Origin: Escherichia coli
GTDB taxonomy: Bacteria > Pseudomonadota > Gammaproteobacteria > Enterobacterales > Enterobacteriaceae
Assembly: GCF_044324875.1 (NCBI RefSeq)
Contig: NZ_CP172189.1
Strand: one strand, 5' to 3'
Length of the DNA: 14,825 bases
The notes beneath the pieces were generated by a model. That model worked only from the letters and a program-made list of their open reading frames with translations. It was not told the DNA's origin and did no database searches. A program made the position numbers and the translations under genes. Below are positions 5,934 through 12,742 of this stretch, piece after piece (position 1 is the stretch's first letter; the number at the start of each line of letters is the position of its first letter).

Positions 5934-7487
5934 TTACCATCCCAGCGACGGGCCATCCAGTGTCCGTTCCTGTATTTCCAGATGGCGCTCACGCTCTAGG
6001 AATAGCTCATGTTCACGTTCCTGTATCAGTAGTTCGTCCCTTATCTCCTGCTCTCGCTGTATAACTGGCTCAAGTGTTCTGTCTGCTCGCTCAAGTGCTG
6101 CACCTGCTGACTCAACTGCATGACCCGCTCGTTCAGCATCGCGTTGTCCCGTTGCGTAAGCGAAAACATCTTCTGCAATTCCACGAAGGCGCTCTCCCAT
6201 TCGTTCAGCCGCTGCATATAGTCCTGTTGCAGCTGCTCTAAGGCGTTCAGCAAATGTGTTTCCAGCTCTGTCACTCTGTGTCACTCCTTCAGATGTACCC
6301 ACTCTTTCCCCTGAAAGGGAATCACCTCTGCTGATTTCCCGTACGGAAGGACCAGAAATTTCCTGTTCCCGTCCTGCACGAACTCCACGCCCCATGTCTT
6401 CGCGTTCAGTTTCTGCAATGTCTCTTCCTGCTTCCTGATATCTTCCAGGTTCGCCTGTATCCTCCCGCCAAGATACCAGAGCGTCCCGCCACTCGCGGTA
6501 AACAGGAGAAAGACTATCCCCAGTAACATCATGCCCGTATTCCCTGCCAGCTTTAACACGTCCTTCCTGTGCTGCCTCATCGCCTCTTTCACCCCTTCCC
6601 GGTGTTTCTCCAGCGATTCCTCTGTCGAGGCTGTGAACAGGGCTATAGCGTCTCTGATTTTCGTCTCGTTTGATGTCACAGCCTCGCTTACAGATTCGCC
6701 GAGCCTCCTGAACTCGTTGTTCAGCACTTTCTCTGTAGATTCGGCTCTCTCTTTCAGCTTTTTCTCGAACTCCGCGCCCGTCTGTAAAAGATTGCTCATA
6801 AAACGCTCCTTTCAGCCTGATATTCTTCCCGCCGTTCGGGTCTGCAATGCTGATGCTGCTTCGCGTCACCCTGACCACTTCAAGCCCCGCCTCTGTGAGC
6901 GCCTGAATCACATCCTGACGGCCTTTTATCTCCCCTACATGATAAAGAGCGTCTATCCCGCGTGTGACGCTCTCAGCAAGCGCCTGTTTCGTTTCCGGCA
7001 GGTTATCAGAGAGAGTCAGTATCCGGCGGTTCTCCGGGGCGTTGGGGTCATGCAGCCCGTAATGGTGATTCACCAGCGTCTGCCAGGCATCAATTCTCGG
7101 CCTGTCTGCCCGGTCGTAGTACGGCTGGAGACGTTTTCCGGTCTGTAGCTCCATGTTCGGAATGACAAAATTCAGCTCAAGCCGTCCCTTGTCCTGGTGC
7201 TCCACCCACAGGATGCTGTACTGATTCTTTTCGAGACCTGGCATCAGTACGCGCTCAAAGCTCGCCATCACTTTTTCACGTCCTCCCGGCGGCAGCTCCT
7301 TCTCCGCGAACGACAGAACGCCTGACGTGTATTTCTTCGCAAATGGCGTGGCATCGATGAGTTCCCGGACTTCTTCCGGATTACCCTGAAGCACCGTTGC
7401 GCCTTCGCGGTTACGCTCCCTCCCCAGCAGGTAATCAACCGGACCACTGCCACCACCTTTTCCCCTGGCATGAAATTTAACTATCAT
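5934..7487 (-). CDS. mbeA: ColE1-type mobilisation relaxase MbeA (MOB-HEN family), 517 aa
   Basis: MIVKFHARGKGGGSGPVDYLLGRERNREGATVLQGNPEEVRELIDA... is the MbeA N-terminal relaxase domain; the C-terminal half is Arg/Glu-rich. The ORF-track start (7535) is a 16-codon upstream extension; the true ATG is at 7487 and overlaps the mbeC stop. Confidence 0.9.
   Translation of the reverse strand: MIVKFHARGKGGGSGPVDYLLGRERNREGATVLQGNPEEVRELIDATPFAKKYTSGVLSFAEKELPPGGREKVMASFERVLMPGLEKNQYSILWVEHQDKGRLELNFVIPNMELQTGKRLQPYYDRADRPRIDAWQTLVNHHYGLHDPNAPENRRILTLSDNLPETKQALAESVTRGIDALYHVGEIKGRQDVIQALTEAGLEVVRVTRSSISIADPNGGKNIRLKGAFYEQSFTDGRGVREKAERESRIYRESAEQRVQEARRICKRGCDIKRDENQRRYSPVHSLDRGIAGETPGRGERGDEAAQEGRVKAGREYGHDVTGDSLSPVYREWRDALVSWREDTGEPGRYQEAGRDIAETEREDMGRGVRAGREQEISGPSVREISRGDSLSGERVGTSEGVTQSDRAGNTFAERLRAAATGLYAAAERMGERLRGIAEDVFAYATGQRDAERAGHAVESAGAALERADRTLEPVIQREQEIRDELLIQEREHELFLERERHLEIQERTLDGPSLGW
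6041..6274 (-). CDS. mbeD: MbeD, 77-aa mobilisation protein nested inside mbeA in another frame; GTG start
   Basis: MTELETHLLNALEQLQQDYMQRLNEWESAF...; GAAGGAG ribosome-binding site 9 nt upstream of GTG at 6274; same arrangement as the ColE1 mob region. Confidence 0.7.
   Translation of the reverse strand: MTELETHLLNALEQLQQDYMQRLNEWESAFVELQKMFSLTQRDNAMLNERVMQLSQQVQHLSEQTEHLSQLYSESRR
6281..6799 (-). CDS. mbeB: MbeB, 172-aa mobilisation protein with one predicted TM segment, nested inside mbeA in another frame
   Basis: MSNLLQTGAEFEKKLKERAESTEK...MMLLGIVFLLFTASGGTLWYLGG...; AAGGAG ribosome-binding site 8 nt upstream of ATG at 6799. Confidence 0.75.
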   Translation of the reverse strand: MSNLLQTGAEFEKKLKERAESTEKVLNNEFRRLGESVSEAVTSNETKIRDAIALFTASTEESLEKHREGVKEAMRQHRKDVLKLAGNTGMMLLGIVFLLFTASGGTLWYLGGRIQANLEDIRKQEETLQKLNAKTWGVEFVQDGNRKFLVLPYGKSAEVIPFQGKEWVHLKE

Positions 7488-7824
7488 CCCGCGCCCCCTG
7501 TTCCCTGACGGCCAGACGCAGCCGGCGCAGCTCATCCCCGATGGCCATCAGTGCGGCCACCACCTGAACCCGATCACCGGAAGACCACTGCCCGCTGTTC
7601 ACCTTCCTCGCGGTCTGATTCAGGTTATTCCCGATGGCGGCCAGCTGACGCAGTAACGGCGGTGCCAGTGTCGGCAGCTTCCCGGAACGGGCAACCGGCT
7701 CCCCCAGGCAGACCCGCCGCATCCATACCGCCAGTTGTTTACCCTCACAGCGTTCCAGTAACCGGGCATGTTCATCATCAGTAACCCGTATCGTGAGCAT
7801 CCTCTCGCGTTTCATCGGTATCAT
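7477..7824 (-). CDS. mbeC: MbeC/MobC-type relaxosome accessory protein (ribbon-helix-helix)
   Basis: ...MLTIRVTDDEHARLLERCEGKQLAVWMRRVCLGEPVARSGKLPT...; stop overlaps the mbeA start. Start codon uncertain (ATG at 7833, 7824, 7815 or 7800); copy C lacks the 7833 start in frame. Confidence 0.85.
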   Translation of the reverse strand: MIPMKRERMLTIRVTDDEHARLLERCEGKQLAVWMRRVCLGEPVARSGKLPTLAPPLLRQLAAIGNNLNQTARKVNSGQWSSGDRVQVVAALMAIGDELRRLRLAVREQGARDDS

Positions 7825-7864
7825 TACCCCCATGAACAGAAATCCCCCTTACACGGAGGCATCA

Positions 7865-8056
7865 GTGACTAAACAGGAAAAAACCGCCCTTAACATGGCC
7901 CGCTTCATCAGAGGCCAGACATTAACGCTGCTGGAGAAACTCAACGAACTGGACGTGGATGAACAGGCAGATATCTGTGAATCGCTTCACGACCACGCCG
8001 ATGAGCTTTACCGCAGCTGCCTCGCACGTTTCGGGGATGACGGTGAAAACCTCTGA
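7865..8056 (+). CDS. rop: Rop/Rom, 63-aa RNA I-RNA II pairing modulator (four-helix bundle); GTG start
   Basis: V/MTKQEKTALNMARFIRGQTLTLLEKLNELDVDEQADICESLHDHADELYRSCLARFGDDGENL; GGAGG ribosome-binding site at 7855-7859. The ORF-track entry 7793-8056 is an upstream in-frame extension. Confidence 0.9.
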   Translation: MTKQEKTALNMARFIRGQTLTLLEKLNELDVDEQADICESLHDHADELYRSCLARFGDDGENL

Positions 8057-8164
8057 CACATGCAGCTCCCGGAGACGGACACAGCTTGTCTGTGAGCGGA
8101 TGCCGGGAGCAGACAAGCCCGTCAGGGCGCGTCAGCAGGTGTTAGCGGGTGTCGGGGCGCAGCC

Positions 8165-8260
8165 CTGACCCAGTCACGTAGCGATAGCGGAGTGTATACT
8201 AGCTTAACTATGCGGCATCAGTGCGGATTGTATGAAAAGTGCACCATAGCCGATGTGAAA
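8165..8260. other. oriT/bom (basis of mobility) region of module B with the nic-site motif
   Basis: cagtcacgtagcgatagcggagtgtatactAgcttaactatgcggc matches the pBR322/ColE1 bom nic region, between rop and the origin. Confidence 0.7.
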
Positions 8261-8439
8261 TGCCGCACAGATGCGTAAGGAGAAAATGCAACTTCCGACA
8301 CTCTTCCGCTTCCTCGCTCACTGACTCGCTACGCTCGGTCGTTCGGCTGCGGCGAGCGGTACCGGCGCACTCAAAGGCGGTAATACGGTTATCCACAGAA
8401 TCAGGGGAGAAGGCCGGAAAGAACATGTGAGCAAAAAGG

Positions 8440-9030
8440 CAAAGGCCAACGAAAGGCCGCGCCGCTGGCGTTTTTCCATAGGCTCCGCCCCCCTGACGAG
8501 CATCACAAAAATCGACGCTCAAGTCAGAGGTGGCGAAACCCGACAGGACTATAAAGATACCAGGCGTTTCCCCCTGGAAGCTCCCTCGTGCGCTCTCCTG
8601 TTCCGACCCTGCCGCTTACCGGATACCTGTCCGCCTTTCTCCCTTCGGGAAGCGTGGCGCTTTCTCATAGCTCACGCTGTTGGTATCTCGGCTTGGTGTA
8701 GGTCGTTCGCTCCAAGCTGGGCTGTGTGCACGAACCCCCCGTTCAGCCCGACCGCTGCGCCTTATCCGGTAACTATCGTCTTGAGTCCAACCCGGTAAGG
8801 CACGCCTTAACGCCACTGGCAGCAGCCACTGGTAACCGGATTAGCAGAGCGATGATGGCACAAACGGTGCTACAGAGTTCTTGAAGTAGTGGCCCGACTA
8901 CGGCTACACTGAAAGGACAGTATTTGGTATCTGCGCTCTGCTGAAGCCAGTTACCTTGGTTAAGCAGTTCCCCAACTGACCTAACCTTCGATCAAACCGC
9001 CTCCCCAGGCGGTTTTTTCGTTTACAGGCA
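8440..9030 (-). other. ColE1-type origin of replication, copy B (RNA II primer region, transcribed on the minus strand)
   Basis: Near-identity to the pMB1/pBR322 ori body (ggcgtttttccataggctccgcccccctgacgagcatcacaaaaatcgacgctcaagtcagaggtggcgaaacccgacaggactataaagataccaggcg...). Confidence 0.9.
8917..9024 (+). ncRNA. RNA I of origin copy B, with stem-loops 2 and 3 different from copy A
   Basis: Starts acagtatttggtatctgcgctctgctgaagccagttacctt as in copy A, then diverges (ggttaagcagttccccaactgacctaaccttcgatcaaaccgcctccccaggcggttttttcgttt). RNA II promoter follows at 9026-9075 on the minus strand. Confidence 0.75.
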
Positions 9031-9080
9031 GCAGATTACGCGCAGAAAAAAAGGATCTCAAGAAGATCCTTTTAACTTTT

Positions 9081-9221
9081 CTACTGAACCGCGATCCCCG
9101 TCAGTTTAGAAGAGGAGGATGGTGCGACAGTCCCTCCCTGAACATCGCGGATGTAATTAGCTTGGCAGCCTGATAGCAAAGCCATCAAGACAAGCATCCC
9201 TCCTGATAATATCATTTTCAT
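9081..9221 (-). CDS. Colicin lysis (release) lipoprotein, 46 aa, of the second colicin locus
   Basis: Hand-translated [46 protein letters not shown]; lipobox LLSGC; GAGG ribosome-binding site upstream. Mature part almost identical to Kil of module A. Confidence 0.8.
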
Positions 9222-9340
9222 ATATTCCCTCATTAACACATACCCCTAATCTTAGGATGACCATTACTTGTACAGCATGATATGCTTATACACATCTACA
9301 ACTAAATTAATAATAATGAAAAGCTTGGAGAGTTATACCA

Positions 9341-9865
9341 ATGAGAAAAGAGCACACTGACAATAAAGATTTAAACAGGACGCTTTTTTTGATTACTTTT
9401 GCAGGCATAACACCATTAATCATTATTTTTATAACTTATACATCAAACCCCAAGTTCTATTTAATTAGCATCATTTTTGATAACACACAAAATATACCTT
9501 CAATAATTTCCGCATACAATCCTGTGATGACAAAGGTGATGGATATCTACGGGAAAAGCGCTCCCTTACTGGCACTTATTGCTTTTACTCTCCAACTCCG
9601 CGACAGAAAGCTAGAGACAATAGCCAACAGAGAAAAACTAATTACTGCCAGCATATTTAGTCCATTTTTTTATGCTTTTTATGCATATTTCTTTCTGTGG
9701 AATAATTTCGAATTAACCACTGCAGGTAGGACTGTCAGATGGATGTCCGATAATGATTTTACTTTGTTTATTTTTTACGCCTGCCTCTATTTTTGCTCTT
9801 TCTTTATGACTTATGCTCTGTGTTATATTCCGGTTGTGTCATATAAACTCTGGAAAGAAAGGTAG
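9341..9865 (+). CDS. Immunity protein for an A-type pore-forming colicin (colicin A/B/N/U/Y class), 174 aa, four predicted TM helices
   Basis: 174-aa aromatic-rich protein with four hydrophobic segments, convergent with a colicin pore-domain remnant and next to a lysis gene; GGAGA ribosome-binding site at 9325-9329. Which colicin it serves cannot be decided from memory. Confidence 0.75.
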   Translation: MRKEHTDNKDLNRTLFLITFAGITPLIIIFITYTSNPKFYLISIIFDNTQNIPSIISAYNPVMTKVMDIYGKSAPLLALIAFTLQLRDRKLETIANREKLITASIFSPFFYAFYAYFFLWNNFELTTAGRTVRWMSDNDFTLFIFYACLYFCSFFMTYALCYIPVVSYKLWKER

Positions 9866-9882
9866 TCTTCTTGACTACCTTT
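9860..9882. terminator. Bidirectional terminator-like hairpin between the convergent immunity and colicin genes
   Basis: AGGTAGTC-ttctt-GACTACCT followed by TTT on the plus strand and by TTT/CTTT on the minus strand. Confidence 0.5.
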
Positions 9883-9892
9883 CGACTCTAGG

Positions 9893-10103
9893 TTAATACG
9901 CAGGGCGAATAATTTCGTTATTTAACCTGTCTATAAATTTGTCATCAATCAATGCTCCAATAAAACTGGCTATAATAATACCGATAATCCCTACGACTGC
10001 AGCTGATGCCCCCACAGCAAGCAGGTAAGCTCCAAGGGTGGCAGAAAAAATAGCAAGAGCCACAGCAGAAGCAATACCACTGACAACCCAGGACTCGACC
10101 TCC
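9893..10103 (-). pseudogene. 3' remnant (~69 codons) of a pore-forming colicin gene: hydrophobic hairpin and C-terminus of the channel domain; the 5' part is replaced by an IS21-family element
   Basis: ...EVESWVVSGIASAVALAIFSATLGAYLLAVGASAAVVGIIGIIIASFIGALIDDKFIDRLNNEIIRPAY resembles the C-terminal hairpin and end of colicin channel domains (compare the colicin E1 C-terminus in this window). Upstream codons of the track ORF (MMPNCDRRWMPNHDRF...) come from IS terminal repeats. Confidence 0.6.
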
Positions 10104-10123
10104 TGCAAAATGGCATCTGAATC

Positions 10124-10232
10124 GATCGCAGTTTGGCATTCGAATCGATCATGATTTGGCATCCATCTCCGATCACAGTTTGGCATCACAATCGATCACG
10201 ATTTGGCATGCTTCCGATCATTGATTGGCATC
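10124..10232 (+). repeat. Five direct repeats (~23-bp period) of CGATCANNRTTTGGCAT at the IS left end; likely transposase binding sites
   Basis: Copies at 10124-10140, 10147-10163, 10171-10187, 10194-10210 and 10216-10232, with related copies in inverted orientation at the right end (12680-12730). Confidence 0.7.
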
Positions 10233-10305
10233 CTGCCAGTCACTCCGGGAATTAACTCTTTTCACCACAGTCTCCATTGCCGTGTTTAAACCAGTGGAGA
10301 CGTCA

Positions 10306-11871
10306 ATGTCCAGAAAGAGAAAATCCAGGAGCACTATGGAAACCTGTTTTAAGATCCTTCAGCTCAAGTTCGACAAGAAGCTGACTAACCGTTGTATCGG
10401 ACTGACGTTACACATCAGCGCCTCAACCGTTTTTGAGGTTCTTGCCCGCTTCAAAGCCTCTTCTCTGTCATGGCCATTACCTGCTGATATATCCCATGAC
10501 ACGCTGGAGAAACTCATTTTTCCGCCCAAAGACACCTTTGCATCAGAGCTTGTAATGCCTGACATGTTGTACTTCGATACGGAAATGAGAAAACCAGGTG
10601 TGACGCGGCAACTGTTGTGGATGGAATACAAGGCACAGGCGGGTAACAAAGCGATGGGATACTCGCACTTCTGCCGTTGCTACCGGGAGTGGAAAAAAAC
10701 GCGACGTCTCTCCATGCGCCAGGAGCATCGTGCCGGCGAAAAGCTTTTTATCGACTTCTGTGGTCCTACGGTTCCTGTTATTAATCCGGACACCGGTGAG
10801 ATACGCCGCGTGGCAATCTTCGTGGCCGTAATGGGGGCGTCCAACTATACCTACGTTGAAGCGTGCGAAGGTCAGGACATGATGTCATGGTTAAATGCCC
10901 ACAGCCGTTGCCTGACCTTCCTGGGCGGCGTACCGAAGCTGCTCATCCCCGATAACCTCAGAAGCGCAGTGAAAAAGGCCGATCGATATGAGCCTGTCAT
11001 CAACGACAGTTATCAGGCACTGGCTGAGCACTATGGCACGGTTATCATCCCGGCCCGACCACGCAAACCTAAAGATAAACCAAAAGCAGAAAACGGCGTC
11101 CTCATCGTTGAACGATGGCTTCTTGCCCGCATCCGTAATGAAACCTTCCACACGCTCAGGGCGCTGAATGCGCGCCTTAGGGAGTTACTGACAGACATGA
11201 ATAACCGGCCAATGAAGGGGTACGGCAATCAAACCCGTGCAGAACGCTTCCGCATACTGGATGCGCCAGCACTCTCTCCGCTGCCTCTGGCACCTTATGA
11301 ATACACGGAATACAAAGCTGTGAAGGTTGGCCCTGACTACCACGTTGAATATGCCCGTCACTGGTACTCCGTTCCACACGAACTGGTCGGTCAGCGTCTG
11401 TCACTGAAGGCGGGGCAGTCGGTGGTACAGCTCTGGCACAAGGGGCAGTGTGTGGCGCAACATCCGCGCAGCACACATGAATATAAACACACAACCAATC
11501 CGCTTCACATGCCAGAGCGCCACCGGCAGCACGGGACATGGACACCGGAACGCCTGATCGAGCAGGGAAAACGTACGGGCCCGTCCACAGGCCGGGTGGT
11601 TGAATCCATGCTGAAGGCAAAACCCCATCCGGAACTGGCTTATCGTGCAGTTCTGGGGCTGCTGGCACTTCAGAAAAAATACGGCCCGGAACGGCTGGAA
11701 AAGGCCTGTTACGTTGCCCTGCACTATAACGCCCCTGACAGACGCTTTATCGACAATCTGCTGCGTCACCATCGGGAGAACCTGGAGCTTCCATTATCCC
11801 GCCAGGGCGAACAACATCCGGCATATGCTTCAGAGCATGAAAACCTGCGTGGTCCGGGCTACTACCACTGA
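10306..11871 (+). CDS. istA: IS21-family transposase IstA, 521 aa from ATG at 10306
   Basis: N-terminal HTH region, DDE-type catalytic core, typical IstA length; GGAGA ribosome-binding site 7 nt upstream. The track start at 10225 is a TTG inside the terminal repeats and is unlikely to be real. Confidence 0.85.
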   Translation: MSRKRKSRSTMETCFKILQLKFDKKLTNRCIGLTLHISASTVFEVLARFKASSLSWPLPADISHDTLEKLIFPPKDTFASELVMPDMLYFDTEMRKPGVTRQLLWMEYKAQAGNKAMGYSHFCRCYREWKKTRRLSMRQEHRAGEKLFIDFCGPTVPVINPDTGEIRRVAIFVAVMGASNYTYVEACEGQDMMSWLNAHSRCLTFLGGVPKLLIPDNLRSAVKKADRYEPVINDSYQALAEHYGTVIIPARPRKPKDKPKAENGVLIVERWLLARIRNETFHTLRALNARLRELLTDMNNRPMKGYGNQTRAERFRILDAPALSPLPLAPYEYTEYKAVKVGPDYHVEYARHWYSVPHELVGQRLSLKAGQSVVQLWHKGQCVAQHPRSTHEYKHTTNPLHMPERHRQHGTWTPERLIEQGKRTGPSTGRVVESMLKAKPHPELAYRAVLGLLALQKKYGPERLEKACYVALHYNAPDRRFIDNLLRHHRENLELPLSRQGEQHPAYASEHENLRGPGYYH

Positions 11872-11886
11872 CAGAAGGAACAACAG

Positions 11887-12643
11887 TATGAGTGATAACC
11901 TGTTAAACAAACTGACCCAACTGAAACTCCCGGCGATGGCCGGGAGCCTGATACGGCAGCGGGAAACGCCTCAGACCTACGACGAACTGTCGTTCGAGGA
12001 AAGGCTGACGCTGCTGGTTGATGACGAGCTTCTGAGCAGGGAAAACAGCCGTGTGGCACGGTTGAGAAAAAATGCCGGCCTGAAATACCAGGCAACACCG
12101 GAAGGGCTGCGCTATCCGGCCTCAAGAGGTCTGCGGGCTGAACAGATGAGAGAACTGCTGAACGGCCACTACATAACCCACAGGAAAAACCTGCTGATAA
12201 CCGGTCCGACAGGATGTGGCAAGAGCTGGATAGCCAATGCGCTGGGCGAACAGGCATGTCGACAGAAACACAGCGTCCGGTACTGTAGAACCGGGCGATT
12301 ACTGGAACAACTGGCTCAGGGACGTGTTGATGGCAGCTGGCTGAAATATCTGAAACAGTTGCAAAAAATACAGGTTCTAATCCTGGACGATCTGGGGCTG
12401 GAACAGTTAAGTAACGCCCAGTGTAATGACCTTCTGGAGCTCATAGAGGATCGTTACGGACAAAGCAGCACGATAGTGGTAAGCCAGTTCCCGGTAGATA
12501 AATGGCATGGTCTGATGGAGAACCCAACAACAGCAGATGCCATCCTGGACAGACTGGTACATAACTCACACCGAGTGGTCCTTCAGGGAGAGTCACTGAG
12601 GAAAAATCCCCCGGTAGTGGAAAGCAGCGAAAAAACGCGTTAA
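11887..12643 (+). CDS. istB: IS21-family ATP-binding helper IstB (AAA+), 251 aa
   Basis: MSDNLLNKLTQLKLPAMAGSL..., Walker A GPTGCGKS, Walker B ILILDDLG; GAAGGAA ribosome-binding site. The track ORF 11645-12643 is an upstream extension overlapping istA. Confidence 0.9.
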
Positions 12644-12742
12644 AAAGCGGTAGAAAAAGTTAAGTTCCCGGTTGATCGAATGGATGCGAATCGCTGATCG
12701 GACTTCGATGCCAATCCGTGATCGAATAGAGCGGAATACGCA

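Follow-up and report, generated by a model that had tools for sequence, protein, structure and literature searches.

A complete ISSso4 element marks one of two joins in an apparent fusion of ColE1 with a colicin Y plasmid

The window analysed here, 14,825 bp (14.8 kb) of Escherichia coli DNA, is a whole closed circle, and the ISSso4 element that it carries at positions 10104-12742 appears, from sequence comparison, to occupy one of the two points at which ColE1 became fused with a colicin Y plasmid resembling pB771_9494. The circularity is directly apparent because window base 14825 corresponds to ColE1 position 758 and base 1 to ColE1 position 757; the circle is that of the assembled sequence. 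ColE1 contributes about 5.6 kb and the pB771_9494-like plasmid about 6.6 kb, with the IS making up the rest, and against the two plasmids the circle shows only two discontinuities, the IS itself and the interval 3463-3498. The preliminary description had proposed that the element is the physical join between modules and owes its position not to simple insertion but to a deletion mediated by the IS or to a fusion of replicons; flanks that come from two plasmids support this.

The element is a common, intact ISSso4 of the IS21 family. The copy in the window, on the plus strand with termini TG...CA, matches many plasmid copies with 100% identity from end to end; the name is taken from those copies in which PGAP labels istB “IS21-like element ISSso4 family.” All 20 independent ISSso4 copies that we surveyed (L003 and L006-L024) are 2,639 bp long, start with TGCAAAATGG and end with GGAATACGCA, exactly as found at window positions 10104 and 12742, so that the ends assigned earlier are exact. 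The left end was aligned with the reverse-complemented right end. The left terminal region (10104-10240, plus strand) contains the terminal inverted repeat and, at intervals of about 23 bp, five subterminal repeats with the motif TTGGCAT, located at IS positions 30, 53, 77, 100, and 122, while the right terminal region (12663-12742, plus strand) contains the imperfectly matching inverted repeat and two to three subterminal repeats. Multiple subterminal repeats 23 bp apart are typical of IS21 ends (PMC10122671). The istA gene (10336-11871, plus strand) encodes a 511-residue IS21-family DDE transposase that matches the NCBIfam profile NF033546 (transpos_IS21) with 284.7 bits against a curated cut-off of 160, and its coordinates agree with the annotated istA of other ISSso4 copies. 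Starting 17 bp past the end of istA, istB (11888-12643, plus strand) encodes the 251-residue AAA+ helper ATPase, which scores 257.8 bits against NF038214 (IS21_help_AAA; cut-off 200). Both profile matches bear out the IS21 assignment of the preliminary description. IS-derived sequence in the window is confined to 10104-12742; within a single E. coli genome ISSso4 can occupy as many as 23 places.

The different origins of the two flanks are equally directly observed. The junction reads ...GACTCGACCTCC-IS-TCCCGCCGTTCGG..., with a colicin remnant on the left and an mbeA remnant on the right, as first described. On the left, the 3′ remnant of the colicin Y gene cya (9893-10103, minus strand) comprises the last 69 codons and the stop codon and is 99.5-100% identical to cya of pCol-Let, pB771_9494, and NZ_CP016009; the 5′ 89% of the gene is missing, and intact cya runs on past the junction as CGCATTAACGG. 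Window 9804-10103 is 100% identical to colicin Y plasmids, within cya. On the right, the 5′ remnant of a ColE1-type mbeA (12743-13403, minus strand) retains codons 1-220 of 517, with 100% identity to ColE1 mbeA over 12743-12942, and intact mbeA reads ...CCTGATATTCT just before the junction. The flanks therefore belong, as had been claimed, to different genes of different modules, the left to the pColY-type backbone and the right to ColE1. The circle also holds an intact pColY-type mbeA (5934-7487), whose product is identical to the remnant protein at 216 of 220 residues; alignment of window 6797-6856 with ColE1 and the right junction places the uninterrupted counterpart of the mbeA target at 6821-6832 (minus strand, TATTCT/TCCCGC). 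The homology to cya seems to continue for 4 bp inside the IS, but this was rejected: TGCA in the window and CGCA in cya differ at the first base, and the three matches that follow are due to chance.

No known plasmid has these two flanks contiguous. Neither the cya-IS nor the IS-mbeA junction occurs in any other record in PLSDB or the RefSeq complete E. coli genomes, the exact junction strings have no match in GTDB representative genomes or JGI metagenomes, and a lookup of the exact MbeA′-IS fusion reading frame with both candidate start codons gave no match. Independent ISSso4 insertions in mbeA are present in OX345325 and in p1054c (NZ_JBUBIS010000004.1), the latter 6-12 bp away from the window junction, and mbeA is therefore a genuine ISSso4 target. 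Both copies resemble the one in the window in length (2,639 bp), identity (99.7-100%), and orientation relative to mbeA. They differ in that each interrupts a single gene and is bordered by a 6-bp duplication (CGATTT and GCCTGA, respectively), whereas the flanks in the window come from two plasmids and share only TCC.

Target duplications of 5 bp (n=4), 6 bp (n=9), or 7 bp (n=6) surround 19 of the 20 independent ISSso4 copies; three further loci, on viral contigs, break off within the IS and contribute nothing on duplications. The target duplication of IS21 in vitro is 5 bp. The one exception, L015, has a 3-bp duplication (CTG) in the context TTC-CTG-CGC, with CGC directly following it; its empty site, 597 bp against 600 bp for the joined flanks, shows it to be a genuine simple insertion. 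Around the window copy no duplication of the usual 5-7 bp is present. The earlier statement that no 4-8 bp direct repeat flanks the element holds to the extent that none of the usual length exists, but it needs to be qualified by the 3-bp TCC repeat, since ISSso4 occasionally makes 3-bp duplications. With a left flank that derives from cya and a right flank from ColE1 mbeA, the element would not be expected to show a target duplication. The absence reflects insertion history, not a property of the element, and is no argument against IS21 membership. With correct ends and no duplication of the expected length, the original observation stands.

Outside the IS, each arc of the circle follows a single parent. 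The ColE1-derived arc begins at 12743-14825 with mbeA′, mbeC, rop, and ori, running from ColE1 2840 down to 758 with 99.7% identity, and continues into 1-3462, which is 99.4-99.9% identical to ColE1 and shows hardly any differences as far as 3462. It carries RNAI (9-113, identified with Rfam) and, with gene names from the ColE1/p1054c annotation, kil (173-310, minus strand), imm (358-699, plus strand), cea (696-2264, minus strand), exc1 (2524-2961), and exc2 (3042-3461). The pColY-type arc (3499-10103) contains the accessory side of cer, 2.4 kb without recognised genes, mbeD, mbeB, mbeA, and mbeC, rop, ori, RNAI (8919-9021), crl (9081-9221, minus strand), cui (9341-9865, plus strand), and the cya remnant. 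Identity to pB771_9494 is 99.5% over the whole arc and 99.54% across 4450-10107, and there are virtually no differences from L002 between 3499 and 4700. The circle contains two backbone repeats of 2.1-2.3 kb that are 91-97% identical. The possibility that window 1-8910 was a pre-existing 8.9-kb plasmid fused through these repeats was rejected, as neither backbone copy mixes parental types and both ColE1 and pB771_9494 run without a break over the repeat edges. The loops of the two RNAI genes differ, so the parental plasmids could coexist in one cell.

In a closed circle the two parental arcs must also meet at a second join. The preliminary description had overlooked both the circularity and this join. 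The last ColE1-specific SNP lies at 3462 and the first pColY-specific SNP at 3499, which directly places the crossover within 36 bp (3463-3498, minus strand) at the cer core. The XerC/XerD core, composed of the XerC arm, the 8-bp central region, and the XerD arm (GGTGCGTACAA-TTAAGGGA-TTATGGTAAAT; 3466-3495, minus strand), is an exact match to the published ColE1 cer sequence (PMC2410131). This 30-bp sequence, GGTGCGTACAATTAAGGGATTATGGTAAAT, is the only exact cer core in the window, and none is expected by chance. The XerC side of the core, from 3499 onward, is of pColY type and continuous with the cer region of pB771_9494. As a class of site, ColE1 cer is characterised by recombination that depends on XerC and XerD and by about 180 bp of accessory sequence, beside the XerC arm, that binds ArgR and PepA. 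RecA was rejected as the maker of this join, since the 36-bp run accounts for just 0.5-0.9% of the homology-weighted probability of crossover. In the reconstructed cointegrate the two cer cores are on the same strand (L002 core minus, aligned ascending; L004 core plus, aligned descending) and therefore form direct repeats, as resolution requires. The join at the cer core indicates that both a fusion and a deletion occurred.

These features are best accounted for by a fusion at the IS followed by an Xer deletion, a course of events that we consider probable and whose order, use of Xer, and choice between transpositional and homologous fusion we infer. At the outset, one of the parents would have carried ISSso4, in mbeA if this was ColE1 and in cya if it was the colicin Y plasmid. 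The two plasmids may then have fused at the IS, either through the cointegrate transposition typical of IS21-family elements or because both parents carried IS copies that underwent homologous recombination. The cointegrate arising in either way would contain the IS twice and cer twice, each pair in direct repeat. Cointegrate formation is a classic activity of IS21-family elements, which also act on tandem copies (PMC3297565; PMC10122671). XerCD acting at the two cer sites, in the normal direction of resolution, would split the cointegrate into two circles. The one lost would consist of ColE1 2841-3908, the second IS copy, and pColY 5657-8510, with no origin, and the annotations place no origin in the missing ColE1 and pColY arcs; the other would be the observed 14,825-bp plasmid with both origins, one hybrid cer, and one IS. 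The predicted parental junctions are ATTCTTCCCG(C)(C)-TGCAAAATGG on the left, for ColE1 mbeA::ISSso4, and GGAATACGCA-(G)(A)CCTCC-CGCATTAACGG on the right, for cya::ISSso4. Searches of PLSDB, RefSeq complete E. coli genomes, GTDB representative genomes, and JGI metagenomes turned up neither a parent with either junction and a normal duplication nor a two-IS intermediate.

A possible, though rather less likely, course begins with a heterodimer. ColE1 and the pColY-type plasmid would have fused at cer, by rare intermolecular Xer recombination or by RecA within the short identical run; ISSso4 would then have inserted into cya or mbeA, and intramolecular transposition of one end of the IS into the other of these genes would have deleted the intervening 3.9 kb together with the second cer, locking the fusion. 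This yields exactly the observed structure of one hybrid-flank IS, one cer, and two origins, and sequence alone therefore cannot fix the order of events. The transposase would have selected both endpoints of the deletion, in keeping with the repeated insertion of ISSso4 in mbeA. On the other hand, Xer recombination at plasmid sites such as cer is filtered to resolve multimers, not to form them (PMC7399989), and a RecA crossover in the 36-bp run has a probability of only about 0.5-0.9%. A heterodimer with two cer sites would soon be resolved again, leaving little time for an insertion and then a deletion, and no record of an IS21-family element deleting adjacent DNA was found.

We also considered that separate ColE1::ISSso4 and pColY::ISSso4 plasmids were joined by the assembler through the shared IS and the backbone repeats. 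In favour of this, the 2.6-kb IS in the circle frequently occurs in several copies in E. coli (as many as 23 places in one genome), the two backbone repeats (2.1-2.3 kb, 91-97% identical) are also present, and the junctions occur in no other record searched. Such a chimera is nevertheless improbable: it would require a second false join, within a 36-bp identical run at a recombinase core even though the backbone repeats offer identical runs of up to 216 bp, as well as the omission of 3.9 kb of sequence, and both joins lie at biologically meaningful sites.

What fusion at the IS followed by Xer deletion leaves unexplained is that uninterrupted cya and mbeA both carry TCCCGC exactly at the join. 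Chance identity of 3 bp between flanks is expected in 1.7% of cases, and coincidence of TCCCGC in one fixed register in 0.04%. If this is no coincidence, ISSso4 might also insert in a second mode, staggered by 3 bp at targets of the pyrimidine-rich form NNN-CGC, and both fusion junctions might have been made in that way, a proposal to which we give little credence. L015 (TTC-CTG-CGC) could serve as its verified example, and the mode could match the 2-3-bp geometry predicted for IstA without proper remodelling by IstB (PMC10122671). In its wider form, the proposal would make fusion by an IS followed by Xer/cer resolution a general way for small cer-bearing plasmids to swap or pool modules.

Still more doubtful is a history in which the shared hexamer itself provided an illegitimate join, the arc without an origin was lost at cer, and ISSso4 later inserted at the join with a rare 3-bp TCC duplication. 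Removal of the IS and one TCC does leave a seamless cya/mbeA hybrid over a 6-bp identity that is improbable by chance, and L015, with its verified empty site and CGC after the duplication, makes a 3-bp duplication possible. However, out of a whole 12-kb plasmid the IS would have had to hit one of about four specific positions, and with a duplication length found in just one of 20 copies, for a joint probability of about 1e-5 to 1e-4, and the IS-free hybrid site GACCTCCCGCCGTT is absent from PLSDB and RefSeq E. coli. An ordinary insertion into one gene, with misplaced ends or an overlooked duplication such as the TCC repeat, is refuted for practical purposes by the exact ends of the element and by flanks, cya and mbeA, that are adjacent in no plasmid of the collections searched.

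Linkage of two replicons by an IS21-family element is shared with IS21 cointegrates (R68.45 with tandem IS21; the IstA cointegrase; PMC3297565; PMC10122671). In a canonical cointegrate, IS copies in direct repeat occupy both replicon boundaries and a duplication surrounds the whole inserted replicon, whereas our circle has one IS, with cer at the other boundary; we read the present structure as having arisen from a cointegrate and not as one itself. The crossover within 36 bp at an exact cer core, with directly repeated parental sites, resembles XerCD/cer resolution of ColE1-type plasmids, and Xer-site-mediated cointegrate resolution has been described for Acinetobacter plasmids (PMC5790767). 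While normal cer resolution gives identical monomers, here the putative Xer partners were cer sites from two plasmids held together by the IS, and resolution would therefore have removed a hybrid arc without an origin and stabilised the fusion. A single intact IS with no matching duplication and flanks from different replicons is also seen with hybrid-flank copies in IS26 cointegrates (PMC7986276), although IS26 belongs to another family with different transposition chemistry, and in the window the second IS was, as we propose, removed by site-specific recombination and not retained.

The event is an ordinary, known kind of plasmid rearrangement and leaves the understanding of IS21 elements and of Xer unchanged. 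When plasmids are annotated or typed, an IS that lacks a target duplication can usefully flag a replicon boundary; at the partner boundary there may be a site-specific recombination site instead of a second IS. Because only one IS and one cer are left, neither Xer nor recombination between IS copies can separate the parts, and the fusion is stable. The resulting plasmid, assembled from ColE1 and a colicin Y plasmid, has two origins and two colicin modules and retains colicin E1 production together with colicin Y immunity.

By local BLAST against ColE1 and the colicin Y (pColY-type) plasmid pB771_9494, window 12743-14825 aligns with ColE1 from 2840 down to 758, and window 1-3614 with ColE1 757 down to 1 and then 6646 down to 3791 (99.4-99.9% identity), while window 4450-10107 corresponds to pB771_9494 1-5660 (99.54% identity). 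The ColE1 match is unbroken over the end and start of the window, base 14825 being ColE1 758 and base 1 being ColE1 757. Therefore, the window is a closed circle, a complete plasmid of 14,825 bp and not a fragment, and the matches establish its make-up as ~5.6 kb of ColE1, ~6.6 kb from a pColY-type plasmid, and an insertion sequence (IS). Two arcs are absent: ColE1 2841 to ~3908, which holds mbeB, mbeD, the rest of mbeA (its 3' part), and the accessory side of the XerC/XerD site cer; and pColY 5657 to ~8510, which holds exc1, exc2, and the 5' 89% of the colicin Y gene cya. In the annotations of the two plasmids, no origin is found in either missing arc.

The IS (10104-12742, 2,639 bp) is assigned to ISSso4. 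Its assignment to the IS21 family in the preliminary description is borne out by istA (10336-11871; NCBIfam transpos_IS21, 284.7 bits against a cut-off of 160) and istB (11888-12643; IS21_help_AAA, 257.8 bits against 200). The termini are TG...CA, and TTGGCAT-containing repeats, five at the left end ~23 bp apart and two to three at the right, complete an end structure like that reported for IS21 (PMC10122671). End to end, the element shows 100% identity with numerous plasmid copies that carry an istB annotated as ISSso4-family, and it matches 506 PLSDB records, the majority from Escherichia. All 20 independent ISSso4 copies used for comparison (L003, L006-L024) are 2,639 bp long, start with TGCAAAATGG, and end with GGAATACGCA, so the boundaries first proposed are exact.

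The element had also been described as joining unrelated genes without a target duplication. The left flank (9804-10103) lies within cya and matches colicin Y plasmids at 100% identity; what is left of the gene (9893-10103) codes for the C-terminal 69 residues, and intact cya runs on past the junction as CGCATTAACGG. For the right flank (12743-12942) the match, again at 100%, is to ColE1; 12743-13403 encodes MbeA residues 1-220, and in intact mbeA the junction is preceded by ...CCTGATATTCT. Thus the flanks do derive from different genes, cya of colicin Y plasmids and mbeA of ColE1. The target duplication of ISSso4 varies within this one element and has no fixed length, being 5 bp in four of the 20 copies, 6 bp in nine, 7 bp in six, and 3 bp in one. 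The last copy (L015, duplication CTG) is a true simple insertion: when its flanks are joined (600 bp), 597 bp align with uninterrupted plasmids of IncK/I type. At the window copy the flanks (...GACCTCC / IS / TCCCGCC...) share TCC alone, a 3-mer identity that chance alone would give in 1.7% of cases, whereas other copies mostly have 5-7 bp; a duplication of the expected length is indeed missing.

A circle derived from two parents needs two joins. When window 2200-4700 was aligned with both parents, it tracked ColE1 to 3462 with a handful of differences and pColY from 3499 with essentially none. The parent-ambiguous interval, 3463-3498 (36 bp), contains the only cer core of the window (3466-3495), an exact match to GGTGCGTACAA-TTAAGGGA-TTATGGTAAAT, the published ColE1 cer XerC/XerD site (PMC2410131). 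This interval is a hybrid cer site, and it is within these 36 bp that ColE1-type sequence gives way to pColY-type. The parents share 299 identical runs of up to 216 bp; with chance crossovers weighted by run length, only 0.5-0.9% would be expected in the 36-bp run, and the second join is best read as the probable product of Xer site-specific recombination. The earlier proposal of replicon fusion or IS-mediated deletion instead of simple insertion is supported by the different-parent flanks and extended by this join at cer.

The most parsimonious path is IS fusion followed by Xer resolution. IS21-family elements are classic cointegrate formers, active on tandem copies (PMC3297565; PMC10122671), and at plasmid sites a topological filter permits Xer to resolve multimers and bars multimer formation (PMC7399989). 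The plasmids would first have fused at the IS, through cointegrate-forming transposition or through recombination of IS copies that both carried, giving pColY 5657...5656 - IS - ColE1 2840...2841 - IS. The cer core is on the minus strand of pB771_9494, which aligns ascending, and on the plus strand of ColE1, which aligns descending, so that in the reconstructed cointegrate the cores are on the same strand, as direct repeats. Xer resolution (cer x cer) would then yield the observed circle and a second one (ColE1 3908-2841, IS, pColY 5657-8510) that, lacking an origin, would be lost. The surviving IS would carry one flank per parent, necessarily without a duplication. Because a single IS and a single cer remain, neither the Xer nor the IS system can reverse the fusion; RecA could still undo it between the two backbone repeats of the plasmid (2.1-2.3 kb, 91-97% identical). 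Plasmid fusion linked by an IS, with a deletion afterwards, is a familiar type of event, of which this is a further case, and its components, one IS and two plasmid types, are already known.

An identical end product would arise if a heterodimer formed first, followed by IS insertion and IS-mediated adjacent deletion. This route calls for Xer activity that the filter opposes, or for an improbable RecA crossover, and then for two further events within a short-lived intermediate. In an unlikely alternative, a microhomology junction came first and a simple ISSso4 insertion afterwards. Exactly at the join (window 10101-10103 plus 12743-12748; pB771_9494 5650-5662; ColE1 ~2832-2846), intact cya (GACC-TCC-CGC-ATT) and mbeA (TTCT-TCC-CGC-CGTT) have TCCCGC in common, with a chance of 0.04% in one fixed register, and taking out the IS and one TCC leaves a seamless cya/mbeA hybrid. 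The IS must then have struck precisely there, with a duplication of the rare 3-bp length. The IS-free hybrid site is absent from PLSDB and RefSeq E. coli. CGC also directly follows the CTG of L015, the sole verified 3-bp ISSso4 duplication. An assembly chimera is unlikely because the second join lies at a 36-bp recombinase core rather than in the long backbone repeats.

The mbeA junction is believable as a site chosen by the transposase, since at least two independent ISSso4 insertions, oriented as here, occur in mbeA of other ColE1-like plasmids: OX345325 (duplication CGATTT, ~210 bp from the window junction) and p1054c (GCCTGA, 6-12 bp). The p1054c locus (NZ_JBUBIS010000004.1, 1722-11639) belongs to a 197-kb record with tandem 7,279-bp ColE1-like::ISSso4 units beside a ColE1 copy, an array that may reflect concatemerization or faulty assembly. 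Both hybrid junctions are absent from PLSDB, RefSeq complete E. coli genomes, GTDB representative genomes, and JGI metagenomes.

The plasmid has two RNAI genes (9-113 and 8919-9021; Rfam RF00106), identical over ~39 nt before their loops diverge; because the loops differ, the two ColE1-type replicons are probably compatible, and one cell could have held both before the fusion. The colicin E1 operon is intact (cea 696-2264, imm 358-699, kil 173-310), as are cui (9341-9865), for colicin Y immunity, and crl (9081-9221, minus strand), for lysis. Since only 69 codons of cya (9893-10103) survive, colicin Y immunity without colicin Y production is expected of the plasmid.

Two minus-strand ORFs are mechanical fusions across the IS ends. 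One (12660-13451) joins MbeA residues 1-220 to 27 residues read from the right end, and no record of it was found; the other (9893-10189) starts at a GTG inside the left end and continues in frame into the C-terminal hydrophobic segment of colicin Y. A region of ~2.4 kb (3500-5930) is common to pB771_9494 and 8,910-bp colicin plasmids; it has no annotated genes, and its ORFs had no NCBIfam match. Positions 5100-5550, which include 26-nt direct repeats (5268 and 5333), are AT-rich (GC 26-31%).
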